Shown piece by piece: positions 10,827-49,435 of a DNA stretch of 49,435 nucleotides. The stretch spans positions 1 to 49,435 of the IMG/VR virus record IMGVR_UViG_2526164669_000023. One strand, 5' to 3'. Made by a program: the position numbers and the translations under genes. Every line of letters starts with the position of its first letter. The stretch's first letter is position 1. The stretch is from a virus (Duplodnaviria; Heunggongvirae; Uroviricota; Caudoviricetes). Below the pieces are notes generated by a model. It worked only from the letters and a program-made list of their open reading frames with translations. It was not told the DNA's origin and searched no databases.

Positions 10827-11960
10827 ATGACTTGTCAAAGTATAATGAGAGATTGCATGAAGATTAACCATGAGGATTTAATTGATCTTATAAAGGCATC
10901 ACTGGATGCGAATTACAGCGAAGTTCGTAGTGTTAGTAATCGCATTGTTCGCGCAATTAGCGCTCAGGATGCTGACTTAGCAAAGCAAATTAAGTCTATC
11001 ATCCGTAAAAAAGGGGTACCATTACGTAGCTCTGGTTATACGGACAGTTTGCCCTTAGATCCGAAATCAAGGATGCCTTTAGTGGAAGAAGTCGAATGGC
11101 CTGCAACGCCTTTATTTCTTTCTGATGAATCACAGCATATTTTTCATGCTTTTATTCAGAATGTTATCCATCAGAATGAACTTATAGAGAATGGAATTCC
11201 AGGTAAATTGAATTTACTTCTTTCTGGTCCGCCAGGAACAGGTAAGACATTAGTCGCTGGTCATATCGCATCCAAATTAAACAAACCGCTCTATGTTGTT
11301 CGGCTTGACTCTGTTATTTCTTCTCTGTTAGGTGATACAGCGAAGAACCTAAGACAGATTTTTGACTTCGTCCCGACAAAAGATGGTGTGTTATTTCTTG
11401 ATGAAGTAGATGCGGTTGCTAAGCTTCGTGATGACAATCAGGAAGTTGGAGAGTTAAAAAGAGTTGTTAACACATTAATCCAAGGACTGGATTCTCTTGA
11501 TGATTCTGCTATTGTCATTGCTGCAACTAATCATTCGAAGCTATTGGATCCAGCAATTTGGAGACGTTTCCCATATAAAATTAGCTTTGGTTTGCCTGGA
11601 CAAGATGTCAGATGTGCTATGTGGGAACATTTTTTATTTAGAGATGATACGGATTCATTTCTAAGTAAAATGTTATCTATCATATCAACTGGGCTAACAG
11701 GTGCTGATATTGAAAATATCAGTTTATCTGCAAGAAGGCATAGTGTTTTATCTGGCAATGGACTGGATATACCATCTGTTGTTTATGCTATATTGAATAG
11801 CGTTGCAGATAGTACAGCAATTCCTTTTGGTAAGGATATAAATTCGAGTGTTAAGAAAAATTTAGCGAAGGAATTATCTAAGTTTAAATTATCACAGGCA
11901 GATATCGGTAGACTTTTAAATGTGAGCAGGCAAACTATATCAGGTTATTTCAAGGAATAA
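10827..11960 (+). CDS. Classical-clade AAA+ ATPase with C-terminal HTH (candidate defense ATPase, IetA-like)
   Basis: Walker A LLLSGPPGTGKT, Walker B VLFLDEVDA, sensor-1 IAATN, Arg-finger region LDPAIWRRFPY; C-terminal XRE-like HTH LSQADIGRLLNVSRQTISGYF. AT-rich relative to flanks. Alternative start at Met11 (10857). Confidence 0.75.
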   Translation: MTCQSIMRDCMKINHEDLIDLIKASLDANYSEVRSVSNRIVRAISAQDADLAKQIKSIIRKKGVPLRSSGYTDSLPLDPKSRMPLVEEVEWPATPLFLSDESQHIFHAFIQNVIHQNELIENGIPGKLNLLLSGPPGTGKTLVAGHIASKLNKPLYVVRLDSVISSLLGDTAKNLRQIFDFVPTKDGVLFLDEVDAVAKLRDDNQEVGELKRVVNTLIQGLDSLDDSAIVIAATNHSKLLDPAIWRRFPYKISFGLPGQDVRCAMWEHFLFRDDTDSFLSKMLSIISTGLTGADIENISLSARRHSVLSGNGLDIPSVVYAILNSVADSTAIPFGKDINSSVKKNLAKELSKFKLSQADIGRLLNVSRQTISGYFKE

Positions 11961-11962
11961 TT

Positions 11963-12538
11963 ATGGTCAGTGAAAATAAAGCTAAAATTTTAAACCCAAT
12001 AATTACTTTATTGAAGCCACCAACGCCAGAGGCGATTCCTGTTGGAGGGAAAAGTCGTAAAAATATTGTTGATTCACGGTTGAAACAACAGCGTGAAGTT
12101 TTATCCTCAGAGATAGATTCCATATTAAGAACAGAAGGTGAAATAGTTAAACATCGTGGTAAGTATCATATAGTAACAAGTATGTTTGAGGACTCATATG
12201 CACCATCGTTTATACCAGATTCATTATTCTGTCCCAGTGTTGAATGTAAGATAGTTGCACCAGCATACAATGGATATTTAATTGAGGTCAATAGCAATGC
12301 TTTATTGAAGTTGAAAAATAAAATTAATAATGCAAAAGCTATTACTGATCTTGTGGATATTTCAAGGGTTAGAAGTGTTAGTCTTTTTGATTCATCTTGT
12401 ACATTGCGAAATAGTAGCCTTGATTCGCTCTGGAATACAGTTAAGGCTTTGAATACATTTCAATTTAATATGTGGCTTATGCCTTTTTTTGATGAGCTTT
12501 CTAGAGAGTCTGTAGTTTCAACTTTTTTAAATTTTTAA
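11963..12538 (+). CDS. Hypothetical protein, middle gene of ATPase/protease cassette
   Basis: 191-aa ORF starting 3 nt after the ATPase stop; AT-rich; no motif I recognise. Confidence 0.55.
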   Translation: MVSENKAKILNPIITLLKPPTPEAIPVGGKSRKNIVDSRLKQQREVLSSEIDSILRTEGEIVKHRGKYHIVTSMFEDSYAPSFIPDSLFCPSVECKIVAPAYNGYLIEVNSNALLKLKNKINNAKAITDLVDISRVRSVSLFDSSCTLRNSSLDSLWNTVKALNTFQFNMWLMPFFDELSRESVVSTFLNF

Positions 12539-12741
12539 ATGATGGTATCATCGCTTTTGGTTATTCAGATTTTGACATAAAAACTATAAATCAAGATGCT
12601 GCTGTTGGCGGGGATAATATAGTCATAGTTCCACCGTTACTTATTGAAGCGATAAAAAAGTATCGTAAATCAGGTCAAGCATCCGTTACCGTCACTGTAG
12701 AGACTAAAGATAGTTTAAACAGGATACTGAATAGCAGTGCT

Positions 12742-14229
12742 GTGTATCGTATAGATCCTGTATCACCGCTAAACGTAACAGATACTCCTCCTGGTAATGG
12801 GGCTGAACCTGTTCCACCAATATTGGGGGATAAGAAAATGCCAACTGTAGTTGTAATTGATGGTGGGTGTAATGCGAAATCATATTCAAATTTAAATATA
12901 TATAAACTAAATCCGCTAATTCCAGATCATGATGCAGATTGTAAACATGGTAATAAAGTTGTATCGTTGTTATGTCACGGTTATGCTTGGAATAATAATT
13001 TAAACTTACCTAAATTGCAATGTAGCTATATAAGTGCACAGGCTATTGCGAAAAGGGGAGTGTTGAAACAACCAACTCCGGATCAATTTTTAAATTATTT
13101 AAGAATGGTTGCTGACAAAACGTCATCTATCGCCAAGGTCTGGAATCTTTCGTTTAATGAAGACGCTCCTCATTATAACTGTAATGAGATAAGTTATCTG
13201 GGACATAAAATCAGTTTGTTGGCTCGAGAATTTGGTATTCTGCCTGTAATATCTATCGGTAATGTTTCAAAGAACGAAAAACAAAAAAATCTTTGTCCGC
13301 CCGCAGATTGTGAGTCAGGAATTACAGTAAGTGGGAGAACGGCCAATCATGAAGGAATGCCTTCAGATGGCTGTCCTTTAAGTCGGAAAGGCCCTGCTCC
13401 TGCAGGAATGAAAAAACCTGAGTTATCATGGTTTTCTCGAGTTAGGGTGATAGGTGGAACAGTAGATATCGGAACAAGTTTTAGTGCTCCATTAGTTTCA
13501 TCTATTGCTGCTCATACCTTTTCGAATATTAAAAATGCCACTCCTGATTTGGTTAGGGCATTATTGATTAACAGGAGTGAGTTGCTTTCTCATGATGATG
13601 CATTAGGATGGGGGACTCCTTGGGATGGCGATTTACTGCCATGGTATTGTAAAGATGGCAGTGTCACATTAACGTGGATATCTAAGTTAAAGGCTGGGGC
13701 TGCTTATTATTGGAACGATCTTCCATTACCTCCAGAGATGTTAGTTAATGGTAAATTAGTTGGTGAGATATCTCTGACAGCTATACTAAAACCTAAGGTT
13801 TCTGAGTTCGGAAGTGAGAACTATTTTTCGACAAGGCTCCAATGTTCGTTACAGGCAATAAAAGAAATTAACGGAACGCTAAAAACAGAAAGCCTTCTTG
13901 GGTCAATGAAAGAATCTTCTGTTGATGAGCGTAAAGCTAGAAATGAACTTTCTAAATGGAGCCCTATTCGCCATCATGCAGAGTCGTTTAAGAGAAAAGA
14001 TATAACAGGGTGTAAAATTCGGCTTTATGCTAGGATATATGCTAGAGATTTGTATCAGTATGGGTTAAATAACCAACGGGAGCTTGAAGAGCAAGAGGTT
14101 TCCTTTGTTTTAACTTTTAAAAGTGTATCAGGATCGTCCTCAATATATACATCAATGGTTCAGCAACTTGGTGTTTATGTTGAAAGTGCTGTTATAGATA
14201 ATCACATTAACATAGATGTTAATAAGTGA
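12742..14229 (+). CDS. Subtilisin-like serine protease (peptidase S8) with C-terminal extension (IetS-like)
   Basis: D-H-S triad motifs in canonical order: VVVIDGGC, CKHGNKVV, GTSFSAPLVSSIAA; about 250 extra C-terminal residues. Track start is GTG; an ATG (MPTVVVIDGG) lies 32 codons downstream; in-frame stop at 12616. Confidence 0.75.
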   Translation: MYRIDPVSPLNVTDTPPGNGAEPVPPILGDKKMPTVVVIDGGCNAKSYSNLNIYKLNPLIPDHDADCKHGNKVVSLLCHGYAWNNNLNLPKLQCSYISAQAIAKRGVLKQPTPDQFLNYLRMVADKTSSIAKVWNLSFNEDAPHYNCNEISYLGHKISLLAREFGILPVISIGNVSKNEKQKNLCPPADCESGITVSGRTANHEGMPSDGCPLSRKGPAPAGMKKPELSWFSRVRVIGGTVDIGTSFSAPLVSSIAAHTFSNIKNATPDLVRALLINRSELLSHDDALGWGTPWDGDLLPWYCKDGSVTLTWISKLKAGAAYYWNDLPLPPEMLVNGKLVGEISLTAILKPKVSEFGSENYFSTRLQCSLQAIKEINGTLKTESLLGSMKESSVDERKARNELSKWSPIRHHAESFKRKDITGCKIRLYARIYARDLYQYGLNNQRELEEQEVSFVLTFKSVSGSSSIYTSMVQQLGVYVESAVIDNHINIDVNK

Positions 14230-17395: not shown

Positions 17396-17471
17396 GGCCC
17401 TTTAGCTCAGTGGTGAGAGCGAGCGACTCATAATCGCCTGGTCGCTGGTTCAAATCCAGCAAGGGCCACCA
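17396..17471 (+). tRNA. tRNA with CAU anticodon (Ile2/Met type, ileZ-like)
   Basis: 76 nt; acceptor GGCCCTT/AAGGGCC, anticodon loop CTCATAA, T-arm GCTGG-TTCAAAT-CCAGC, 3' CCA. Confidence 0.8.
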
Positions 17472-17473
17472 TT

Positions 17474-17550
17474 CCGCCACTAGCTCATCGGGATAGAGCA
17501 TCAACCTTCTAAGTTGATTGTGCGAGGTTCGAGTCCTCGGTGGCGGACCA
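17474..17550 (+). tRNA. tRNA-Arg (anticodon UCU)
   Basis: 77 nt; acceptor CCGCCAC/GTGGCGG, anticodon loop CTTCTAA, T-arm CGAGG-TTCGAGT-CCTCG, 3' CCA. Confidence 0.8.
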
Positions 17551-18034: not shown

Positions 18035-19600
18035 ATGTCCAAAAAGAGAAAATCCAGGAGCACTATGGAAACTTGTTTTAAGATCCTTCAGCTCAAGTTC
18101 GATAAGAAGCTGACTAACCGTTGTATCGGACTGACGTTACACATCAGCGCCTCAACCGTTTTTGAGGTTCTTGCCCGCTTCAAAGCCTCTTCTCTGTCAT
18201 GGCCATTACCTGCTGATATATCCCATGACACGCTGGAGAAACTCATTTTCCCGCCCAAAGACACCTCTGCGTCAGAGCTTGTTATGCCTGACATGCTGTA
18301 CTTCGATACGGAAATGAGAAAACCTGGCGTGACGCGCCAACTGTTGTGGATGGAATACAAGGCACAGGCGGGTGACAAAGCGATGGGATACTCACACTTC
18401 TGCCGTTGCTACCGGAAGTGGAAAAAAACGCGACGCCTCTCCATGCGACAGGAGCATCGTGCTGGCGAAAAGCTCTTTATCGACTTCTGTGGTCCTACGC
18501 TTCCTGTTATTAATCCGGACACCGGAGAGATACGCCGCGTGGCAATCTTCGTGGCTGTAATGGGGGCGTCCAACTATACCTATGTTGAAGCGTGCGAAGG
18601 TCAGGACATGATGTCATGGTTAAATGCCCACAGCCGTTGCCTGACCTTCCTGGGCGGCGTACCGAAGCTGCTCATCCCCGATAACCTCAGAAGCGCAGTG
18701 AAAAAAGCCGATCGCTATGAGCCTGTCATCAACGACAGTTATCAGGCGCTGGCTGAGCACTATGGCACGGTTATTATCCCGGCCCGCCCGCGCAAACCTA
18801 AAGATAAACCAAAAGCAGAAAACGGCGTCCTCATCGTCGAGCGATGGCTTCTTGCCCGCATCCGTAATGAAACCTTCCACACGCTCAGGGCGCTGAATGC
18901 ACGCCTTCGGGAGTTGCTGACGGACATGAATAACCGACCAATGAAGGGATACGGTAATCAAACCCGCGCAGAACGCTTCCGCATGCTGGATGCACCAGCA
19001 CTCTCTCCGCTGCCTCTGGAGCCTTATGAATACACGGAATACAAAGCCGTGAAGGTTGGCCCTGACTACCACGTTGAATATGCCCGTCACTGGTACTCCG
19101 TTCCACACGAACTGGTCGGTCAGCGTCTGTCACTGAAGGTGGGGCAGTCGGTGGTACAGCTCTGGCACAAGGGGCAGTGTGTGGCGCAACATCCGCGCAG
19201 CACACATGAATATAAACACACAACCAATCCGCTTCACATGCCAGAACGCCACCGGCGGCATGGGACATGGACACCGGAACGCCTTATCGAGCAGGGAAAC
19301 CGTACAGGTCCGTCCACAGGCCGGGTGGTTGAATCCATGCTGAAAGCCAAACCCCATCCGGAGCTGGCTTACCGTGCAGTCCTGGGTCTGCTGGCACTTC
19401 AGAAAAAATACGGCCCGGAACGGCTGGAAAAGGCCTGTTACGTTGCCCTGCACTATAACGCCCCGGACAGACGCTTTATCGACAATCTGCTGCGTCATCA
19501 TCGGGATAACGTTGAGCTTCCGTTATCCCGCCAGGGCGAACAACATCCGGCATATGCTTCAGAGCATGAAAACCTGCGTGGTCCTGGCTACTACCACTGA
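18035..19600 (+). CDS. istA: IS21-family transposase IstA
   Basis: 521 aa from MSKKRKSRSTMETCF; N-terminal HTH and DDE-type core; followed by an IstB ATPase. Confidence 0.8.
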   Translation: MSKKRKSRSTMETCFKILQLKFDKKLTNRCIGLTLHISASTVFEVLARFKASSLSWPLPADISHDTLEKLIFPPKDTSASELVMPDMLYFDTEMRKPGVTRQLLWMEYKAQAGDKAMGYSHFCRCYRKWKKTRRLSMRQEHRAGEKLFIDFCGPTLPVINPDTGEIRRVAIFVAVMGASNYTYVEACEGQDMMSWLNAHSRCLTFLGGVPKLLIPDNLRSAVKKADRYEPVINDSYQALAEHYGTVIIPARPRKPKDKPKAENGVLIVERWLLARIRNETFHTLRALNARLRELLTDMNNRPMKGYGNQTRAERFRMLDAPALSPLPLEPYEYTEYKAVKVGPDYHVEYARHWYSVPHELVGQRLSLKVGQSVVQLWHKGQCVAQHPRSTHEYKHTTNPLHMPERHRRHGTWTPERLIEQGNRTGPSTGRVVESMLKAKPHPELAYRAVLGLLALQKKYGPERLEKACYVALHYNAPDRRFIDNLLRHHRDNVELPLSRQGEQHPAYASEHENLRGPGYYH

Positions 19601-19616
19601 CAGAAGGAACAACCGT

Positions 19617-20372
19617 ATGAGTGATAATCTGTTAAACAAACTGACCCAACTGAAACTCCCGGCGATGGCCGGGAGCCTGATACGGCAACGGGAAACGCCT
19701 CAGACTTACGACGAACTGTCGTTCGAGGAAAGGCTGACACTGCTGGTTGATGACGAGCTTCTGAGCAGAGAAAACAGTCGTGTGGCACGGTTGAGAAAAA
19801 ATGCCTGCCTGAAATATCAGGCAACACCGGAAGGGCTGCGTTATCCGGCCTCAAGAGGTCTGCGGGCTGAACAGATGAGGGAACTGCTGAACGGCCACTA
19901 CATAATCCACAGGAAAAACCTACTGATAACCGGTCCGACAGGATGCGGTAAGAGCTGGATAGCCAATGCGCTGGGCGAACAGGCATGTCGACAGAAATAC
20001 AGCGTCCGGTACTGTAGAACCGGGCGATTACTGGAACAGTTGGCTCAGGGACGTGTTGATGGCAGTTGGCTGAAATATCTGAAACAGTTGCAAAAAATAC
20101 AGGTTCTAATCCTGGACGATCTGGGGCTGGAACAGTTAAGTAACGCCCAGTGTAATGACCTTCTGGAGATCACAGAGGATCGTTACGGACAAAGCAGCAC
20201 GATAGTGGTAAGCCAGTTCCCGGTAGATAAATGGCATGGTCTGATGGAGAACCCAACAACAGCAGATGCCATCCTGGACAGACTGGTACATAACTCACAC
20301 AGAGTGGTCCTTCAGGGAGAGTCCCTGAGGAAAAATCCCCCGACAGTGGAAAGCAGCGAAAAAACGAGTTAA
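19617..20372 (+). CDS. istB: IS21-family helper ATPase IstB
   Basis: 251 aa from MSDNLLNKLTQLKLPAMAG; Walker A GPTGCGKSWIANAL, Walker B VLILDDLG. Confidence 0.8.
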   Translation: MSDNLLNKLTQLKLPAMAGSLIRQRETPQTYDELSFEERLTLLVDDELLSRENSRVARLRKNACLKYQATPEGLRYPASRGLRAEQMRELLNGHYIIHRKNLLITGPTGCGKSWIANALGEQACRQKYSVRYCRTGRLLEQLAQGRVDGSWLKYLKQLQKIQVLILDDLGLEQLSNAQCNDLLEITEDRYGQSSTIVVSQFPVDKWHGLMENPTTADAILDRLVHNSHRVVLQGESLRKNPPTVESSEKTS

Positions 20373-22974: not shown

Positions 22975-23766
22975 ATGAGCGAGAAATTGAAGATCGTCTA
23001 TCGCCCGTTACAAGAACTGTCTCCGTATGCACACAATGCCAGGACACACAGCCCTGAGCAGGTGGCACAACTGGTAGAAAGCATTAAGCAATTCGGCTGG
23101 ACTAATCCAGTGCTGATTGATGAAAAGGGCGAAATTATTGCTGGTCACGGTCGCGTTATGGCGGCTGAGGCGCTCAAAATGGATTCGGTTCCGGTTATTG
23201 TTCTGTCTGGTCTGACGGATGATCAGAAAAAGGCGTACCGCCTGGCAGATAATCGCCTGCCGATGAATGCTGGCTGGGATGAAGATCTGTTACGGATGGA
23301 GCTGTCGGACCTAATCAATGCTGATTTTGATATCTCCCTGACAGGATGCAGCCCGACAGAAATTGATGAACTGTTGACGGATGTTTTGCCCGGTACAGGA
23401 AATGAGGAGGAACCGTACACGACGAAAATTGATACGCCTGTTTATGAGCCGTCGGGCGATAAACCAGATATCAGTGAACTGTACGACGATACGAAAACTC
23501 AGGAGTTGATCAGCCGGATACGTTCGGCGTCCCTTGATCCTGATATTGAGAAATTCCTCCTGTGTGCGGCAGAACGTCATACGGTGTTTAATTTCAGCAG
23601 AATTGCGGACTATTACGCTCACGCCCCCGCTGAAATTCAGTGCTTTTTCGAGGAATCGGCGCTGGTGATCATTGATTATCAGCAGGCTATTGAAAATGGA
23701 TTTGTCCGGATGACGCAGCGTATGGTGGAGATCATGCATGGCGGGGAGGAGGAGGAATATGCGTGA
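22975..23766 (+). CDS. ParB-like nuclease domain protein
   Basis: 263-aa ORF; N-terminal ParB/Srx-type motif (LIDEKGEIIAGHGRVMAA); acidic C-terminus; upstream of terminase genes. Confidence 0.6.
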   Translation: MSEKLKIVYRPLQELSPYAHNARTHSPEQVAQLVESIKQFGWTNPVLIDEKGEIIAGHGRVMAAEALKMDSVPVIVLSGLTDDQKKAYRLADNRLPMNAGWDEDLLRMELSDLINADFDISLTGCSPTEIDELLTDVLPGTGNEEEPYTTKIDTPVYEPSGDKPDISELYDDTKTQELISRIRSASLDPDIEKFLLCAAERHTVFNFSRIADYYAHAPAEIQCFFEESALVIIDYQQAIENGFVRMTQRMVEIMHGGEEEEYA

Positions 23767-24697
23767 TGATTTTTGCGCCTTTATTCTGACTCACGGGCGA
23801 CCGGACAAAGTTCTGACTTACCGGACGTTGCGTCGTGCTGGCTATACCGGGAAAATTTTTATCGTTGTTGATGATGAAGATAAAGATAATACACGGCATC
23901 ACTACATAGCTGAATTTAGTGAACAGGTGCTGGTGTTTTCCAAAGCCGATATCGCCAGTCGTTTTGACGAAGCCGATAATTTCGGTGACCGCCGATCAAT
24001 TTTTTACGCCCGTAATGCCTGTTTCGACCTGGCAAAACTGGTCGGGTGTAAATACTTCATTCAGCTCGATGATGATTATCACGAGTTCCAGTTTCGGGTG
24101 GATCGCAACTATGACCAGGCCTATTTCCCGATAAGAAAACTGGATGCGATCCTTTCTGAAATGCTGGCGTACTACGAATCAATACCTGCGCTTTCCATCG
24201 CTATGTCGCAGGGCGGAGATTTTCTTGGTGACAATGGCGGCCATGCTTCGTGGGTGAAACGCAAGGCAATGAACAGTTTTATCTGTTCCGTTGATCGACC
24301 GTTCTCATTCATGGGGCGCATTAACGAGGATGTGAATACGTATACGAATCTTGGTCGCTGTGGTGAATTGTTTATGACGATCGGTGCTGTCCAGTTAGGG
24401 CAGAAACAGACGCAGAAAAACAGCGGCGGAATGACCGAGCTGTATCTGGACTCCGGAACCTACGTTAAAAGTTTTTACTCCGTCATGTATGCGCCGTCGT
24501 GCGTAAAAATCTCACTGATGGGTGCCAGCCATAAACGCATTCACCATCAGGTCACCTGGAACAACGCTGCAGTAAAAATCCTTCACGAAAAATACAGGAA
24601 GAAGACACCCTGCATATCAATGGGGGTGACAAATGATTCCGTATTCGAAAGTAGAGTCTCTGGCAGCGTGCCGGATGACTGCACAACAAATCGCTGA
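23759..24697 (+). CDS. Hypothetical protein, possible GT-A-like glycosyltransferase
   Basis: 312 aa from MRDDFCAFILTHGRPDK; candidate DXD motif FIQLDDDY; RBS GGAGGAGGAA; overlaps the ParB-like gene by 8 nt. Function is a guess. Confidence 0.4.
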   Translation: MRDDFCAFILTHGRPDKVLTYRTLRRAGYTGKIFIVVDDEDKDNTRHHYIAEFSEQVLVFSKADIASRFDEADNFGDRRSIFYARNACFDLAKLVGCKYFIQLDDDYHEFQFRVDRNYDQAYFPIRKLDAILSEMLAYYESIPALSIAMSQGGDFLGDNGGHASWVKRKAMNSFICSVDRPFSFMGRINEDVNTYTNLGRCGELFMTIGAVQLGQKQTQKNSGGMTELYLDSGTYVKSFYSVMYAPSCVKISLMGASHKRIHHQVTWNNAAVKILHEKYRKKTPCISMGVTNDSVFESRVSGSVPDDCTTNR

Positions 24698-27311: not shown

Positions 27312-28751
27312 TTGATGGCAGAGATCGAGATTACTGGCGGCCTCGGTTCAGCACTGATGCGTATTCTTGAGGCTGAAGAAATTCAGCCGGGAACCGATAT
27401 TGGCTATGAATTGTGTAAGCTGCTGTGGCAATTCCATCCTCTGGGCGGAAAACTTGTCGAAAAACCCATACTGATGGCGATGTGTAAGCCGCGACAGTAT
27501 AACGTGGAGACAGATCCTGACGAGAGGGTTGTGCGGCGTTTCCAGGAGGTATGGGAACGTATGAGGGTCAACGAGAAGATAAAAAATCTGTTTTTTCTGT
27601 CTCGTTGCTACGGTGCTGCAGCGATCGGCGTGGGCACCGACAGTGTTTCATGTCGTGAGCCGCTTCCGACATTCGGGCTGACAGAAGAGGATGTGTATAT
27701 CAACGCGTGGGATCCGTTGAACGCTTCCGGTTCGATGGTGACTGACCAGAACCCAAACAGTCCGTTTTTCCAGGAAGCCAACAAAAGGCTGAAGATTGGC
27801 GGAAAAGACTGGCATCCGTCACGCACACTGAAAATCTTCAACGGCACACCGATTTATCTGGAGTTTCAGAGTTCATCGTTCGGATTCACCGGACGAAGTG
27901 TGTTTCAGCGCGTTCTTTATTCCCTGAAATCCTATATCAACACGATGGAGGCGAATGATCTCGTCAGTCAGAAGGCGGGCGTACTGGTAGCTAAAGTTGT
28001 GCAGTCCGGTTCGAAAATGGACGGGATCATGGCTGCTGCCACGGGGCGTAAAAGGGAAAACGTGAAAGCCGCCAAAAATAAAGGCGTGTTGAGTATTGGA
28101 AAAGACGAAGACGTAAGTTCACTGAACCTGCAAAACATCGACGGGGCGCTGAATACTGCCCGCGACAATATCATTGCTGATATTGCCGCCGGGAGTGACG
28201 TTCCGGCCATTATTATCAAGGAAGAAGCATTCAGTAACGGATTCGGTGAAGGTAAGGAGGACTCGAAAGCCATCAGCCAGTATATCGATGGTGTACGCCA
28301 GCAGATTGAACCTGTGATGGATTATTTCGAACGCCTGGTGCAGTACATCGCCTGGAACGAGGAATTTTATCAGTCGCTGAAAAATGATTACCCGGACATC
28401 ATAACCGAGGACTATAAAACCACGTTTTACCAGTGGCGGCGCGAGTTTACCGCGACGTGGCAGGAGCTGGTGGAGGAGTCGCCGGACAAACGCCGGGAAA
28501 GCGACAGTAAAGTGATTCAACAGGCGATAGCACTTTTCTCTGCCGTGTCGCTACAGGTTGATCCTGAAAACCGTGCCGCCGTCACTGAATGGCTGGCAAG
28601 CCTTGTTAATGCCACGCAGACCTATGGCGAAGCTCCACTCATCATTGATGTGGACGCCCTGGCGAATTATGAACCACCGAAGCAGGAGACGCCTGATGGC
28701 AATTTCCAGCCGGGCGGGGAGGAAGAAGAAACGGATCAGGACGCTGTATGA
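27312..28751 (+). CDS. Portal protein (putative)
   Basis: 479-aa ORF immediately after TerL; acidic C-terminus; assigned by position and size. Confidence 0.5.
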   Translation: MMAEIEITGGLGSALMRILEAEEIQPGTDIGYELCKLLWQFHPLGGKLVEKPILMAMCKPRQYNVETDPDERVVRRFQEVWERMRVNEKIKNLFFLSRCYGAAAIGVGTDSVSCREPLPTFGLTEEDVYINAWDPLNASGSMVTDQNPNSPFFQEANKRLKIGGKDWHPSRTLKIFNGTPIYLEFQSSSFGFTGRSVFQRVLYSLKSYINTMEANDLVSQKAGVLVAKVVQSGSKMDGIMAAATGRKRENVKAAKNKGVLSIGKDEDVSSLNLQNIDGALNTARDNIIADIAAGSDVPAIIIKEEAFSNGFGEGKEDSKAISQYIDGVRQQIEPVMDYFERLVQYIAWNEEFYQSLKNDYPDIITEDYKTTFYQWRREFTATWQELVEESPDKRRESDSKVIQQAIALFSAVSLQVDPENRAAVTEWLASLVNATQTYGEAPLIIDVDALANYEPPKQETPDGNFQPGGEEEETDQDAV

Positions 28752-42104: not shown

Positions 42105-42308
42105 TTGAATACGCAAGGGATGATTACGTATGTTTGGAGGTCTTCCGTGATTAATTTTAGCGGAGGAGACTGGATTGTGAAAGCCTTAAAATTAGTGGCA
42201 AAAAGCAATACCTTACGACGCATGTATTACACCGCTGCACTCGTAGCTTTAGCATTTGCCTTTTCACCAGTACTGACAGAGTTAGTTAAAGTGATGGGGG
42301 CACGATGA
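42105..42308 (+). CDS. Small hypothetical protein (67 aa)
   Basis: ORF with one hydrophobic segment (YYTAALVALAFAFSPVL); stop overlaps the next start (ATGA). Confidence 0.35.
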   Translation: MNTQGMITYVWRSSVINFSGGDWIVKALKLVAKSNTLRRMYYTAALVALAFAFSPVLTELVKVMGAR

Positions 42309-42652
42309 GAACATGGGGCCGCGTCACCGACGCGAACGGCAACAAAAAATGGGTTACAGTAGAATCTGACGCCAACGGTGATTTCTCCTATGGCTGGCTG
42401 ACGACGCTCATTCAGACGTTAAAGCTGGGATTGGGGGAGTCGCCGTTTTACGCGAATTACGGTATTCCTGCACAGCAGTGCATCGTGCAGCAGATTTACC
42501 CAGACTACTATGTGAACATGGTTCAGCAACAGTTTGCTGGGTATTTTGCATCACTGGCAATTTCAAAGGTAGATGGAGCAGATAACCCCACCTATAACAT
42601 CGATGTTGTGTTTTTTAATGGGACCAGTTACCGGACGCAGGTGCCGGTATGA
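42305..42652 (+). CDS. Baseplate protein (gpW/gp25-like, putative)
   Basis: 115-aa ORF, size and position as for gpW-type baseplate wedge proteins. Confidence 0.4.
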   Translation: MRTWGRVTDANGNKKWVTVESDANGDFSYGWLTTLIQTLKLGLGESPFYANYGIPAQQCIVQQIYPDYYVNMVQQQFAGYFASLAISKVDGADNPTYNIDVVFFNGTSYRTQVPV

Positions 42653-42802
42653 ATCACAGTTTTATGATAAAACTTTTACCTTGGTTTGGAGTGCTGTAGA
42701 GAGATATTTTAGGGGGGGCGAGTAATTTTCTAAGCTGGAGCATATTGACATATATTATTTCGGATTTGCAAAATACATATTGTTACCATGGAGGAGACAA
42801 GC

Positions 42803-43963
42803 ATGGAAAATTTTGCAAATAAGTTAAAAATACACACAGAGCATGTTGCAAAAATGGGGGTGTTTTGTACAACTGAAGAAACGACAAAACAAGCACTCAT
42901 TATGCCATTACTAGATATTCTTGGTTTTACTCCGTATGATCCAAGAAAAGTCAAAGCTGAGTATAGTGCTGACTTCCCCGGGGTTAAGGCTAATGAACGG
43001 GTTGATTACGCTTTATTTTGTCATGATGTTCCTGTGATGTTCATTGAGGCGAAATCGTTTTCAGAACAAATTGATAATCACTGCCCACAGCTATCAAGAT
43101 ATTTTAATTCAACACCGGAAGTTACTATATCAGCCATTACAAATGGTGTTGAATGGCGTTTTTTTACGGATTTGAAACAAAAAAACATAATGGATTCAAC
43201 GCCGTTTTTAAAAATAAGAATGGATTCTCTAACTCACTCCGATATTACACAATTATTTCGTTTTCGTTATGATAAATTCAAACCAGAGGCTTTACGGACA
43301 CTGGCTGAAGAAAGTGTTTATTTGAATTCATTTACTAAAACAATCAGTTCTAGTCTTCGTGAAGTTGATCTGGAGTTTGTTCGATATGTTGCTAGTCGTT
43401 CAAATATTGAGAGACAACTTAATCAGAGATTTCTTGAGTTCGTGACTCCATTAGTTAAACAGGCCGTTGAGCGCGCTGTTAGCGCAATGGTGGTTTCCGG
43501 GCTATCTACACAACCGGTAGAGCAAACTAAAGAAAATGATGCAACGGATACACAAGTTAATAACGCCATTGTTGATGAAGAAAACCCCAACATAATAACC
43601 ACAGCCAAAGAATTGGAGCTATTTGAAAGGGTAAAACAAATCATACAAACAGAAGATAATATAGAATATAAAGATACTGAGTCATATTTTGGTGTACTAT
43701 TGAATGGTAAAACTAATAGATGGCTGTTAAGATTTTATGATAAAAAATCTTCATTTATAACTTTACCTATTTCGCTTAGTGAAGTTCAGTTGAATGAAAT
43801 AAGACGAGCTCGACTTGATACGGATGGTAAAAGGATACATATAACTAATCCGGAAGATATACTTCGCATATCTGGTTTGATTCTGGATTCATACGAGTAT
43901 GTTAAAAATGATGATAATTTCCGCCGAGGGTCCAGAGCGAGCAGTTTAGAAGAGGTTGAATAA
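42803..43963 (+). CDS. PD-(D/E)xK nuclease-fold protein, HsdR N-terminal-like domain (moron; candidate defense gene)
   Basis: About 386-aa ORF; motif ERVDYALFCHDVPVMFIEAKSF (D...E-A-K); AT-rich, own RBS GGAGGAG, promoter-like AT-rich upstream region with TTGACA at about 42745, own terminator. Confidence 0.65.
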   Translation: MENFANKLKIHTEHVAKMGVFCTTEETTKQALIMPLLDILGFTPYDPRKVKAEYSADFPGVKANERVDYALFCHDVPVMFIEAKSFSEQIDNHCPQLSRYFNSTPEVTISAITNGVEWRFFTDLKQKNIMDSTPFLKIRMDSLTHSDITQLFRFRYDKFKPEALRTLAEESVYLNSFTKTISSSLREVDLEFVRYVASRSNIERQLNQRFLEFVTPLVKQAVERAVSAMVVSGLSTQPVEQTKENDATDTQVNNAIVDEENPNIITTAKELELFERVKQIIQTEDNIEYKDTESYFGVLLNGKTNRWLLRFYDKKSSFITLPISLSEVQLNEIRRARLDTDGKRIHITNPEDILRISGLILDSYEYVKNDDNFRRGSRASSLEEVE

Positions 43964-45230: not shown

Positions 45231-45840
45231 AAAAATTCTCCCTGCTTATCCGTTTGTGCAGTACAGAGATGATCCGAATGTTGTTGCGTTCTTTGATGCA
45301 TACAATGAAATTGCTCAGGAATACCTCGATTCACTCAACAATCTGGCATTGCCATGCTGGACATCGGAATCAATAACCGGGCAATTGCTGGACTGGATTG
45401 CTCTCGGGATTTATGGCGTTGAAAGGCCTTTACTACAGGTTTCCGAGGAGGCTATTGCACGCGGCGCATACGATACCATTGAATACAATACAATCCCTTA
45501 TGCGGCAATGCGGAATTATGTTCCGGGGCAGGCATCGTATGTTCCGGATGATTATTTCAAGCGAATATTAACTTGGAATTTTTATAAGGCTGACGGTTCG
45601 CATTTCTGCATTGACTGGTTAAAGCGCCGTGTGGCACGGTTCATTCATGGGAAAAACGGAATAGACCCGCCGTTGCAGCACACTTTTGATGTGAGCGTGA
45701 CTGTATCGGACAGTGTTTTTTCTATTCAGATACCAGAATATGGTGATGGTATAGGCTATTTTCTGAAAGATGCCATTGACCAGAAATATGTAAAACTCCC
45801 TTTTATTTATTCCTATGCAACAACGGTGATTCAAAAATGA
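45214..45840 (+). CDS. Baseplate/tail protein (gpI-like, putative)
   Basis: About 208 aa from MQYLTEKILPAYPFV; overlaps the J-like gene end; precedes the tail fiber gene. Confidence 0.45.
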   Translation: MQYLTEKILPAYPFVQYRDDPNVVAFFDAYNEIAQEYLDSLNNLALPCWTSESITGQLLDWIALGIYGVERPLLQVSEEAIARGAYDTIEYNTIPYAAMRNYVPGQASYVPDDYFKRILTWNFYKADGSHFCIDWLKRRVARFIHGKNGIDPPLQHTFDVSVTVSDSVFSIQIPEYGDGIGYFLKDAIDQKYVKLPFIYSYATTVIQK

Positions 45841-47222
45841 TTCTTGGATTCGGAAATAACGTTGTTTCAGCACTGGCTGGTGATATTACGACGATTCAGA
45901 CTGATATTCCGGTGATGCCGGGCACGGGAGCTAAATTTGCAAAATTGCTTTCTGCCGATTTTGAAAATAAATCGAACGGGCAACGCGTCTATGCAAAAAT
46001 TACGCTTACCGATAATAAAGAGTCTGCATTTGAGATTTGTCATTTGGTATCGGTAAGCGGTGATGTGTTGAAAGTCATTCGTGGGCAGGAAGGAACAACC
46101 GCGAAAGGTTGGTCCCTTAATGATGTTGTGGCTAACTTTGCCACGCGTGGTTCGGAAAACTATTTCGTACAGATAGCGCAGCTTCAGAGCGGTCATTATA
46201 TTGCGGGTGTTGCTGGCGGCACTGCAAACGCACTGACGCTGGAACTTCCCTCGACGTTTTTTGTTAATGGAGGTACAGATTGGACGCTACGAACTCCGAT
46301 TATCGTTTTCCCCGTTCAGAACAATACCAACGCCGCGACGCTTCAATTAACACTAGGCGGAAAGGTTCTTGGTTCGTTCCCACTTTATAAGGGGAACAAG
46401 TCCGAGCTGGTAGCGAATGATATCATTAAGGGTATTCCTTTGATTTGCCTTCTTGATAGCGAGAAAAGCTATTTCAGTGTGATAAACCCCGGCAATATCT
46501 ATTCAGATTTTGATCTGCGATATGTAAAAAAATCTGGTGATTTGATGACCGGGGAGCTGAAAATCCGTGGTGTTAATGCGCTGAGGATTTTCAACGAAGC
46601 CTTTGGTCTGATTTTTCGTCGTTCGGAAGAGTGCCTGCATCTCATTCCTACCAGGGAAAATCAGGGCGAAAACGGCGATATTGGTCCACTTCGCCCGTTC
46701 ACTATTAATCTGCGGACGGGCGAAATATCCATGTCGCATAAAGTGTCTGTTGGCGGTGGTTCGCAGGTCAATGGTGCGCTGGGTATCGGCGTTCAGAACG
46801 CGCTGGGCGGAAACTCAATTGCTTTCGGGGATAACGATACGGGTATAAAGCAGAATGGCGACGGCCTGCTGGATATTTATGCCAATGGCCAGCATATATT
46901 CCGTTTTCAGAACGGGACGCTACAAAGCAACAGGGCCATGAACATTTCTGGTAGGGTAACACCGTCAGACTACGGAAACTTTGATGCAAGGTATAAGCAG
47001 CGAACAGAGGGAGTGCAGGATGTGCGCTATGGTTCCGAAATGTATTACAACCCTGGCAGCAATGTAATCTCCTGGACATATCACGCTCCTGCGGGACACG
47101 GATTGTCAGGGATATCGATATCGGATACTGGTAAAAATTCAGCGGATAACGTCAACGGCGTGTATTACCGACCGCTTCAGAAACTGATTAACGGCACCTG
47201 GTATAACGTGGCGAGTGTTTAA
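45837..47222 (+). CDS. Tail fiber protein
   Basis: 461-aa ORF directly upstream of a Tfa-type chaperone; Gly-rich C-terminal half. Confidence 0.55.
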   Translation: MILGFGNNVVSALAGDITTIQTDIPVMPGTGAKFAKLLSADFENKSNGQRVYAKITLTDNKESAFEICHLVSVSGDVLKVIRGQEGTTAKGWSLNDVVANFATRGSENYFVQIAQLQSGHYIAGVAGGTANALTLELPSTFFVNGGTDWTLRTPIIVFPVQNNTNAATLQLTLGGKVLGSFPLYKGNKSELVANDIIKGIPLICLLDSEKSYFSVINPGNIYSDFDLRYVKKSGDLMTGELKIRGVNALRIFNEAFGLIFRRSEECLHLIPTRENQGENGDIGPLRPFTINLRTGEISMSHKVSVGGGSQVNGALGIGVQNALGGNSIAFGDNDTGIKQNGDGLLDIYANGQHIFRFQNGTLQSNRAMNISGRVTPSDYGNFDARYKQRTEGVQDVRYGSEMYYNPGSNVISWTYHAPAGHGLSGISISDTGKNSADNVNGVYYRPLQKLINGTWYNVASV

Positions 47223-47224
47223 CA

Positions 47225-47770
47225 ATGTTGCATTTAAAAAATATTACTGCAGGCAATCCGAAAACCGCAGAACAATATCAGATGACAAAACAACATGGTA
47301 TCACCTGGCTTTTTTCGGAAGATGACAAAAACTGGTATGAAGAGCTGAAAAATTTTGCCAGTGACACCATAAAAATGGTTTACACCGGAGACGGGCGCGT
47401 GGTTTGGGTTGGTAAGGATGTGACAGGCATTGAACCCCGTAACGCCAGTGTTATTGAAGTTCCTGATATTACCGCTAACCGCCGTATTACCGTGCCTGGT
47501 TACTGGTTTTACCGCGACGATAAATTTGTCTTCGACTACAAACTTAAAGCGGAAGATGAGCGCGATGCCCTGTTACAACGGGTCAGCATCATGACCAGCG
47601 AATGGGAAAAAGACCTGCTGCTGGGATTAATCAGTGACGACGACAGGGAGAAGCTGAAAGCGTACCGCATTTACGCGAAATCGCTGCAGGCGATGGATTT
47701 CAGCACCATCACTGATAAAACCTCATATAACGCCATTGAATGGCCCGTCTCTCTGGAAGCCTCTTCCTGA
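47225..47770 (+). CDS. Tail fiber assembly protein (Tfa-like chaperone)
   Basis: 181-aa ORF; C-terminal region YRIYAKSLQAMDFSTITDKTSYNAIEWPV resembles the conserved ...DIEWP... C-terminus I recall for lambda-type Tfa proteins. Confidence 0.6.
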   Translation: MLHLKNITAGNPKTAEQYQMTKQHGITWLFSEDDKNWYEELKNFASDTIKMVYTGDGRVVWVGKDVTGIEPRNASVIEVPDITANRRITVPGYWFYRDDKFVFDYKLKAEDERDALLQRVSIMTSEWEKDLLLGLISDDDREKLKAYRIYAKSLQAMDFSTITDKTSYNAIEWPVSLEASS

Positions 47771-47793: not shown

Positions 47794-48527
47794 ATGTCTG
47801 TAGTGATATCAGGTGCACTGATTGATGGCGCAGGCATCCCCATGTACGGATGCCACATAACTCTGAAATCCCGGGTAAACACCTCAGAGGTGTGATGCGC
47901 ACAGTTGCCGATGTGGTGACAGGAAACTGTGGTGCAGGCGCAGCAGAGCGCGAAACAGCACAGGGACGAGGCGCAATGGATAGTTGATGATCTGAAGGGA
48001 AGCAATGCTTCCACGACAAAAAAGGTCTGGCGCAACTCTGTAGTGATACAGACAACGACAGCGAAGAACTGGCAGCCACGCCAAAGGCTGTCAAAACCGT
48101 CACGGACGAGACGAAAACAAAAGCGCCACTGGACAGCCCTGCGTTCACCGTCACGTCAGAACTTATCGCCGTGGGAAAGGATGCCAGAAAGCGGGAAATC
48201 GAGGTGTGGAGCACAGAACAGGAAGCGCAGCCGTTCACGTTCGAATGGAACGGTCGCACCTGGAATGCTGGCCCCGACTCAATGGCTCGTCTTTATCCGG
48301 CAGTAATGGCATCAAAGTCTGACACAGCGCGAAAAACCATGGTATGGGGCGATGCGGAAAACCAGCAGGTGAAGCTGTCAATGCCGGAACCGGAAGAACT
48401 GGCAGCAGCAATGGCGCAGGCTGTTGTTGAACGCAATGACGAGATTTATCGCCGTCAGCGAGAGAAGAAAGAAGCGTTAGACACTCTGGAGGATTTAGAT
48501 GCGATACGAGCATTTAATGTTGAGTAA
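47794..48527 (+). pseudogene. Degraded lambda-type side tail fiber (stf-like) remnant
   Basis: 33-codon ORF MSVVISGALIDGAGIPMYGCHITLKSRVNTSEV resembles the Stf N-terminus and ends at a stop; a shifted frame carries the collar motif SEELAATPKAVKTVTDETKTKAPLDSPAF and continues as the 48171-48527 ORF. Confidence 0.45.
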
Positions 48528-48763
48528 CGAATAGGTCGCAGTGAGTTGTTCTGGTATCTGAAGAATGAGGCTCCGGTTGCTGGCTGCAGTCGGAGGTTTA
48601 TGATGTGTACTCTCACATTGTTGAAGAAATCAATTGCGCAATTGGAGAGCAGGAACGTAAGAAAACAAGAGAAAGTCTACAATCGCTTGTAGGGTGTCAC
48701 TTCTTGATTTTTTCATAAATTTTATGATAAAATCATGAAGTAAAAGTGATGGGAGAAACTTTC

Positions 48764-49435
48764 ATGAATATGCCTCATTGTGTTCTGCATACAGGAATTG
48801 ATTCGGATTTTGTACTTAGTAAACTGGGCTTTACAGAAAATGATATTCGCGATGCGTTAATGTCTGCTTTATACGAGCGACGCAAATCCAGTAAGCTCCA
48901 CCCTAAAGTGGATGCTGGATTCCGCTTTTGGAGTGAGATGGTTGCCGCGCTTCGCCGTATTCTGATTGGTAAGGGTAACGGCTGGTCTTCTGAAGTAGTC
49001 AATCGCATGGAAATGGTCGTTAATTCAAGCAAAGGGGTTAATCTGATTATTACCTCAGGTGACGGACATACCGGGCGTCCTGATGGATTGCCTAAAACCA
49101 AAAATGCAAAGGGAGAGGCAACTCGCTCGATTGTTCACAACAATCCGGGTACATTCGATATGTTCCAAGCAGATACCTTACATTCAGGCAAAGCTGAGAT
49201 CACGCCGATAGATAGCACCCGAACTTATATCGTTCTGTATTATTATGATGCGGCAAATAAAGAAATTCGCTGTGAGGTGTCGTATCCGGTAGGGATGGTG
49301 AATCAGGACGGATTTGCCAGAGTAAGCGCGTGGAGTGAGCGAATTATTTTAGCTCCTCTGCAATTTGAAGGTGCGGATATTTTCCCTGAACAGGATTTTG
49401 ATGATGACATATCAATTTCAGTTGAAAGCAAATGA
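48764..49435 (+). CDS. Hypothetical protein (accessory gene at prophage right end)
   Basis: About 223 aa from MNMPHCVLHTGIDSDF; RBS GGGAGA; sigma70-like promoter (TTGATT ... TGATAAAAT) at about 48700-48735; stop is the last codon of the window. Confidence 0.55.
   Translation: MNMPHCVLHTGIDSDFVLSKLGFTENDIRDALMSALYERRKSSKLHPKVDAGFRFWSEMVAALRRILIGKGNGWSSEVVNRMEMVVNSSKGVNLIITSGDGHTGRPDGLPKTKNAKGEATRSIVHNNPGTFDMFQADTLHSGKAEITPIDSTRTYIVLYYYDAANKEIRCEVSYPVGMVNQDGFARVSAWSERIILAPLQFEGADIFPEQDFDDDISISVESK

Follow-up and report, generated by a model that had tools for sequence, protein, structure and literature searches.

What is the last gene of this virus record, which stops on the record's final base, and does it work alone? 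The record, IMGVR_UViG_2526164669_000023 of IMG/VR, is a stretch of 49,435 nucleotides and was analysed at full length (hereafter the window). At its right end, behind tail fibre genes, lies an open reading frame (ORF) of 223 residues. An earlier note, made from the letters alone, had described a gene without recognisable motif, equipped with its own sigma70-like promoter and ribosome-binding site, and had proposed that it could be lysogenic-conversion or defence cargo. The length of the ORF, the tail-fibre, Tfa and tail-fibre-remnant genes that precede it and its ribosome-binding site are as described there. The analysis reported here points to rmrT, the toxin gene of a RosmerTA system, carried in a cargo cassette of a Rac-family prophage of Escherichia coli at ttcA. 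Taken as a whole, this explanation is given a probability of about 80%.

The protein encoded by the ORF matches the PADLOC model of RmrT (PDLC03935) with E = 1.4e-59, residues 12-223 being aligned with model positions 10-206/207. RosmerTA was described by Millman et al. 2022 (preprint, supplementary file 11) as a Zn-peptidase antitoxin associated with "a toxin of unknown function". The verified operon, SG158 of E. coli OLC-716, encodes an RmrT of 239 aa and an RmrA of 370 aa. Under its native promoter, this operon gave phage protection at 37 °C, and a deletion of rmrA was unobtainable (no transformants), possibly through toxicity (Millman et al.). The verified RmrT is recognised by the same PADLOC model (1.1e-52). 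It shares 29% identity with the window protein over 211 aa (E = 4e-19), and its comparison with the profile of the window family using hhalign gives a probability of 99.6% (E = 1.3e-24). A conserved loop reads SGDGHTG...PKTKNAKGE in the window protein and RGCDQTG...PESRMKKGD in OLC-716 RmrT. The claim that the protein bears no recognisable motif holds for Pfam, NCBIfam and PHROGs, whose scans returned nothing, but not for PADLOC, where the RmrT match is full length. When 62 diverse members of the family were compared with Pfam, only scattered chance matches came up.

A word-indexed search recovered only 19 close clusters, all from Enterobacterales where the organism is named. An exhaustive profile search recovered 1,485 representatives at E <= 0.001, nearly all of 210-230 aa. 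The gene adds a divergent member to an already known system and would be picked up by standard defence-finding tools. The 90%-identity cluster of the toxin is found on well over 1,000 contigs from E. coli and Salmonella enterica, records of serovar Typhi included. In all public sources of the look-up the toxin is named 'hypothetical protein', and its partner is named XRE regulator or ImmA/IrrE metallo-endopeptidase.

That partner is found just beyond the edge of the window. The gene context and attR, which lay out of sight of the earlier note, were sought in a near-identical genome, NZ_AP042478.1, and a two-gene operon followed by attR was found. This genome is 100% identical to the final 8,906 bases of the window and differs from the entire window by one base. 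Reading on in it completes rmrA, the start codon of which overlaps the stop codon of rmrT; the 1,103 remaining bases lie beyond the window, and the whole gene (8903-10009 in L001, the source E. coli locus) encodes 368 aa. Because the window is cut at the rmrT stop codon, rmrA, the hairpin behind it and attR are all absent from it. RmrA matches the PADLOC RmrA model (6.6e-143) and contains the Pfam domains HTH_3 (3.8e-10), a helix-turn-helix (HTH), and Peptidase_M78 (4.6e-21), with an HExxH motif at residue 207. It is 44% identical to the verified OLC-716 RmrA over the full length (E = 1e-106), the HExxH being intact. About 55 bases 3' of the rmrA stop, direct folding gives a hairpin of 15 pairs (-24.6 kcal/mol, z = -4.9), with an A-run on one side and a T-run on the other.

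The window system and the OLC-716 operon have the same gene order and gene sizes. In both, the antitoxin combines an HTH with an M78 peptidase bearing HExxH, and a palindrome lies between the -35 and -10 elements of the upstream promoter. They differ in their operator sequences and in the extent of toxin divergence given above, and the window system, unlike that of OLC-716, is the terminal cargo of a Rac-type prophage.

The pairing of toxin and partner holds in 13 of the 13 loci examined. These come from E. coli (the source locus), Rouxiella, Kluyvera, Atlantibacter, Pragia, Enterobacter, Enterobacillus, Pantoea, Yersinia, Serratia and three metagenomic contigs, one of them assigned to Syntrophales. 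The partner is an HExxH protein of 368-371 aa; at locus L008, it runs off the contig end after 296 codons. The two genes overlap by four bases in 10 loci and by eight bases in two, and are separated by an eight-base gap in the remaining one. HTH_3 and Peptidase_M78 were confirmed in the five loci for which precomputed Pfam matches exist. Genes neighbouring the related loci encode Gabija-like OLD-TOPRIM/UvrD proteins, type I restriction-modification (R-M) systems, Mrr and HEPN/NTase proteins, which are typical defence-island genes.

The promoter proposed in the earlier note does not stand out as a bare sigma-70-like pattern, but it is upheld by conservation across genera. A 44-bp block at 48698-48741 is almost invariant across nine genera in which the toxins are 52-87% identical, whereas the flanking DNA is unalignable. 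The block follows the pattern CACTTCTTGATTT...CAT.A...TTATG...AAATCATGAAGT and covers the -35 element together with the AAAT that ends the -10 hexamer. Its invariance between unalignable flanks argues that the promoter is real. An inverted repeat spans the whole promoter (Table 1). Distant loci and the verified SG158 operon show the same layout, namely a -35 of CTTG(T/A)T, then a spacer that holds a palindrome, then a -10 rich in A and T. In these, the arms of the palindrome change together, as in ACATCA-AA-TGATGT, ACCTCA-AA-TGAGGT and TCATAAA-T-TTTATGA. The 43-bp repeat is probably the operator of an RmrA HTH dimer through which the operon represses itself, as predicted from these comparisons.

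The architecture of RmrA recalls known repressor-protease pairs. Its residues 138-277 match the PADLOC capP model (1.3e-19) and its residues 14-91 match capH (1e-5); from these weaker matches, RmrA looks like a fused repressor-protease. CapH/CapP of the cyclic-oligonucleotide-based anti-phage signalling system (CBASS), ImmR/ImmA and DdrO/IrrE likewise associate an Xre-type HTH repressor with an M78 Zn-protease. In RmrA, unlike in these systems, one polypeptide unites the two modules, and the gene under control encodes a toxin, which RmrA has to neutralise as well. For ImmA/ImmR and CapP/CapH, it is established that a stress signal leads the protease to cut the repressor. Rosmer is not known to involve such cleavage or a DNA-damage trigger.

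The layout, from promoter/operator to rmrT, overlapping rmrA and a strong hairpin, is that of a self-contained cargo cassette, for which the following working is proposed. In a lysogen, the sigma-70 promoter of the operon would drive its transcription without dependence on the late tail operon. RmrA, with its Xre-type HTH and its ImmA/IrrE-type Zn-peptidase, would bind the operator over the -35 and -10 elements and repress its own operon; we propose this autorepression because the 43-bp palindrome is conserved and by analogy with type II toxin-antitoxin (TA) systems, ImmR/ImmA and CapH/CapP. RmrA would also keep RmrT harmless, as shown for relatives by the undeletable rmrA of OLC-716 and by essentiality in transposon sequencing (Tn-seq) of three Pectobacteriaceae. 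On infection by a competing phage, some cue would end the control by RmrA, perhaps via its protease domain. The freed RmrT would then stop the cell and abort the infection, so that the lysogen population and the prophage would be protected.

Several points weigh against this account. The toxin shares just 29% identity with the verified one, and it is assigned by sequence comparison. The bare promoter pattern is no better than chance, with one site found where 2.0 are expected in shuffled sequences. A simple terminator scanner makes no call at the hairpin behind rmrA. Finally, three elements are inferences: that RmrA binds the palindrome, what sets the system off and what the peptidase domain does.

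The position of the cassette was defined by comparison of genomes. The window corresponds to a full-length Rac-family E. coli prophage inserted at ttcA, with the gene order intR, xisR, ralR, recET, kilR, sieB, racR, ydaSTUV, and then the genes for lysis, head, tail and baseplate. The limits of the window, the intR stop on the left and the rmrT stop on the right, are both gene ends. The attachment (att) core, of 43 bp, is present in two copies of 93% identity, one in the 5' end of ttcA beside intR and the other 330 bp after rmrA; attR lies outside the window, about 1.3 kb (1,330 bases) past its end, a distance also put at about 0.9 kb; the part cut off, with rmrA, its hairpin and attR, corresponds to L001 8903-10379. 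In empty-site genomes, the match starts exactly at the 43-bp att core. In K-12 Rac, the match begins no earlier than 178 bp ahead of this core (L001 10159-10337, beyond the window), and the DNA between the tail-fibre genes and this terminal segment is wholly different in K-12 Rac and in the window prophage. Since the two prophages share the last 178 bp only, the slot looks like a site of cargo exchange in Rac-type prophages. The 906-base region at the right end is found at >=99.7% identity in eight complete E. coli chromosomes, and the cassette is carried by 8 of 5,426 complete E. coli genomes. This sparse presence, together with the limits of the empty-site and K-12 Rac matches, delineates a module of about 2.16 kb of variable cargo that begins at window position 48528, ends about 720 bases past the window and corresponds to NZ_AP042478.1 1692106-1694265. 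No further cargo follows it inside the prophage, where the conserved 178-bp end and attR come next. INPHARED phage genomes gave no match to the DNA of the region.

The proposal of defence or lysogenic-conversion cargo is supported in that the gene is the toxin of a catalogued RosmerTA system and sits in a variable cargo slot just inside attR. Three things lay beyond the view of the earlier note: that this kind of gene was already catalogued, that a two-gene operon is halved by the window edge, and where attR is located.

Features at the right end of the window are collected in Table 1. Two start codons have been used for rmrT. An alternative RefSeq start at 48749 gives a protein of 228 aa, and many public records use the 223-aa form. 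In the first alignment, each of the 17 homologues starts at the methionine of 48764, which favours the 223-aa call. The hairpin at 48571-48595 delimits the cassette on its left and may shield it from read-through of the late operon; the number of terminator-like sites is not above chance (one found, 1.1 expected in shuffled sequences).

Table 1. Features around rmrT at the right end of the window (window positions).
Feature	Position	Strand	Details
Tail fibre gene	45837-47222		Upstream of rmrT
Tfa gene	47225-47770		Pfam Caudo_TAP, 6.4e-22
Tail-fibre N-terminal remnant	47794-47895		33 aa
DUF4376 gene	ends 48527		Pfam match DUF4376
Terminator-like hairpin	48571-48595	+	3' of the DUF4376 and tail-fibre-remnant genes; 10-pair stem with 6 G-C pairs, weak T-tail
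Inverted repeat, 43 bp	48699-48741		Repeat finder; two 21-nt arms, 90% complementary, 1 nt between them; spans the whole promoter
-35 hexamer TTGATT	48704-48709	+	Promoter scan; invariant in 9/9 Enterobacterales loci
-10 hexamer TAAAAT	48728-48733	+	18-nt spacer; TG at 48725-48726, two bases upstream, marked by the scan as preceding the -10; last four bases AAAT invariant
Ribosome-binding site GGGAG	48751-48755	+	8 nt before the ATG; GGAG kept there in related loci
rmrT	48764-49435	+	ATG at 48764, TGA at 49433-49435; 223 aa; last base of the window is the last base of the stop codon
rmrA start	49432-49435 (ATGA)	+	Start codon 49432-49434 overlaps rmrT stop 49433-49435

How RmrT acts is a separate question, for which the literature searched gives no mechanism in the family of the window protein. 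Eleven residues are invariant among sequences sharing about 26% identity (R64, W74, T103, G104, P110, G117, N127, E167, E171, P175 and R193), and D100, K116, R169 and S173 are nearly so. This pattern of conservation at such low identity suggests an enzyme. The predicted secondary structure comprises helix 50-70, strands 74-79, 82-87 and 92-99, helix 118-126 and strand 153-162, that is, the alpha-beta-beta-beta-alpha-beta order of the PD-(D/E)xK core. In the fold comparison, Hjc (4.7) and a RecU-like protein (4.9) were matched over about 100 residues; the remaining matches are short and helical, with poor root mean square deviation. Tentatively, and at somewhat less than even odds, RmrT may be a divergent PD-(D/E)xK-like nuclease acting on nucleic acid, with a proposed active site composed of R64, D100, K116, E167, E171 and R193. 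Sequence identity with enzymes of this fold (NaeI, ThaI, BglI, SfiI, SwaI and EcoRV, and the Hjc/Hje resolvases) is 6-13%. Compared with them, RmrT has additional elements, namely a helical bundle at the N-terminus and a beta-hairpin at the C-terminus, the latter bearing E167 and E171.

The nuclease idea faces objections of its own. The canonical D...(D/E)xK motif could not be placed on the expected strands of RmrT. On strand 2 the best candidate is E83, in whose place one subclade has S or P; D100 follows strand 3. E167 and E171, the most conserved acidic residues, sit in the extra C-terminal hairpin. A Foldseek search of the PDB with both RmrT models gave nothing significant, the top rows being histidine kinases with a TM score of about 0.15. 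No PDB sequence and no Pfam family matches the RmrT family profile. A second family profile compared with PDB sequences gave two non-significant matches only (E of about 0.08-0.09), one of them to a restriction endonuclease, to which no weight was given. It is quite conceivable that RmrT is an enzyme or a binding protein with a non-nuclease target, such as a protein, the nucleotide pool or a tRNA modification, and that its likeness to endonucleases reflects a general alpha/beta architecture. The conserved residues, the lack of a membrane-like segment and the order of secondary-structure elements are what the proposal of an enzyme of this fold draws on. The fuller version of that proposal is more doubtful and, on balance, rather unlikely: the RmrT family would be an unrecognised divergent branch of PD-(D/E)xK with a relocated active site (D100, K116, E167, E171, R64 and R193), subject to control at two levels by RmrA, a fused repressor/protease of the CapH-CapP kind, with repression at the 43-bp operator and a nuclease held inactive until a phage cue.

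A different view concerns the purpose of the pair. It could serve mainly as an addiction or stabilisation module that penalises loss or excision of the Rac-type prophage, not as an anti-phage defence. The layout is that of a type II TA operon, with overlapping genes and a palindromic operator-like repeat across the promoter. In a Tn-seq study, rmrA was essential in three Pectobacteriaceae and clpX was essential only in Rosmer-carrying strains, the kinship of the toxins with the window family not being established. Rousset et al. described a prophage-borne toxin without known domain, followed by a downstream partner, which makes clpP essential in E. coli E101; the toxin substitution T46S relieves this dependence. 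Millman et al. cite the E101 pair as having the same configuration, and the kinship of its toxin (WP_001179380.1) with the window family is likewise not established. Essentiality without any phage present indicates a constitutive toxin pressure. However, the verified homologous operon protects against phages from its native promoter, and related loci are not confined to mobile elements in need of stabilisation but also occur in defence islands, where Gabija-like, type I R-M, Mrr and HEPN genes are their neighbours. Stabilisation as the main function is therefore judged unlikely, and the addiction and defence roles are compatible, not mutually exclusive.

Returning to RmrT as a soluble toxin, killing by membrane depolarisation is very improbable. 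Such an activity was reported by Ernits et al. 2023 for RmrT(D5) of the Gordonia phage Kita, which depolarises and permeabilises the membrane, and later papers extend depolarisation to RmrT in general. Yet, according to Ernits et al., Rosmer toxins are unrelated families with only the antitoxin in common. The Kita toxin has a predicted C-terminal membrane segment, whereas the window protein is acidic (isoelectric point 5.7), soluble and globular in the predicted model. Hydropathy reveals no membrane-like segment in it (maximum 19-residue Kyte-Doolittle value of 0.76), and the membrane-toxin reading was rejected on this ground.

That the ORF, lying directly 3' of degraded tail-fibre pieces (the 33-aa N-terminal remnant and a DUF4376 fragment), could itself be a tail-fibre-related or chaperone remnant or an inactive relic is effectively refuted by the PADLOC RmrT match, the RmrA partner, the conserved residues and the alignment with the verified RmrT: the Pfam and PHROGs scans and the two homologue searches gave no similarity of the protein to tail-fibre or chaperone families, homology that the earlier note had named as a refutation, while the neighbours do match Caudo_TAP and DUF4376, and the ORF is intact, keeps all invariant residues of the family, is >=99.7% identical in eight genomes, and retains a conserved promoter block and an intact partner gene.

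Other systems resemble RosmerTA in part. PD-lambda-2 (Vassallo et al. 2022) and the Kita RosmerTA both associate an Xre-HTH and ImmA/IrrE-peptidase protein with an adjacent toxin-like gene, and both are anti-phage. PD-lambda-2 has three genes, its first component is HigB-like and its peptidase protein is itself toxic; it matches the RmrA of the window system only at E = 0.0078. Its three genes and HigB-like toxin led to the conclusion that it is not the same system. The toxin of Kita acts on membranes and is unrelated to the window RmrT.

The locus illustrates how the two genes of a defence system can be parted when a prophage boundary is set where a gene ends, so that the toxin looks like an orphan "hypothetical protein". 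It also places a Rosmer variant in the slot for cargo that Rac-type prophages have between their tail-fibre genes and attR. Beyond what was catalogued, the analysis contributes an artefact of the window boundary, a promoter and probable operator with a conserved palindrome, and a fold proposed tentatively for the toxin family. The conserved residues, the tentative nuclease-like fold and the palindrome provide specific targets for mutants and binding assays. If RmrT were indeed a divergent PD-(D/E)xK branch under dual control by RmrA, this would be the first mechanism for the founding Rosmer toxin family.

Further observations were made elsewhere in the prophage. A second known defence system, Gao_Iet (IetAS), is located at 10857-14229, 3' of the replication genes ydaU/ydaV. 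It consists of IetA, an AAA ATPase (PADLOC, 4.8e-100), followed by IetS, an S8 subtilase (PADLOC, 1.4e-65). The sole difference between the window and NZ_AP042478.1 falls there, at 12532-12537, where a T5 run in the window corresponds to T6. The T5 run frameshifts IetS, so that two ORFs (11963-12538 and 12742-14229) replace a single gene of 755 aa. Either the inactivation is real or the shorter run is a sequencing error in a homopolymer.

Amid the baseplate genes, a protein of 391 aa (42788-43963) carries the N-terminal nuclease domain of a type I restriction R-subunit (Pfam HSDR_N, 5.6e-14) and has no PADLOC match. It is preceded by a 115-aa ORF (42305-42652) for which no matches were found. 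The HSDR_N gene looks like a further cargo insertion within the tail module. An IS21-family element, ISSso4 (istA, istB), occupies 18065-20372, between the lysis genes and tRNA-Ile and tRNA-Arg genes at about 17396-17550 (RefSeq annotation of the identical record). Directly upstream of the terminase genes, at 22975-24697, a protein with a ParB/Srx N-terminal domain is followed by an overlapping 'GREB1-related' gene; the first 144 residues of the ParB/Srx protein match the PADLOC model of a type II methyltransferase (1.7e-37). Right after the large terminase gene, a gene of 479 aa (27312-28751) is labelled 'anti-CBASS protein Acb1 family protein' in RefSeq. This label may be wrong, because the gene sits at the position expected for the portal gene.
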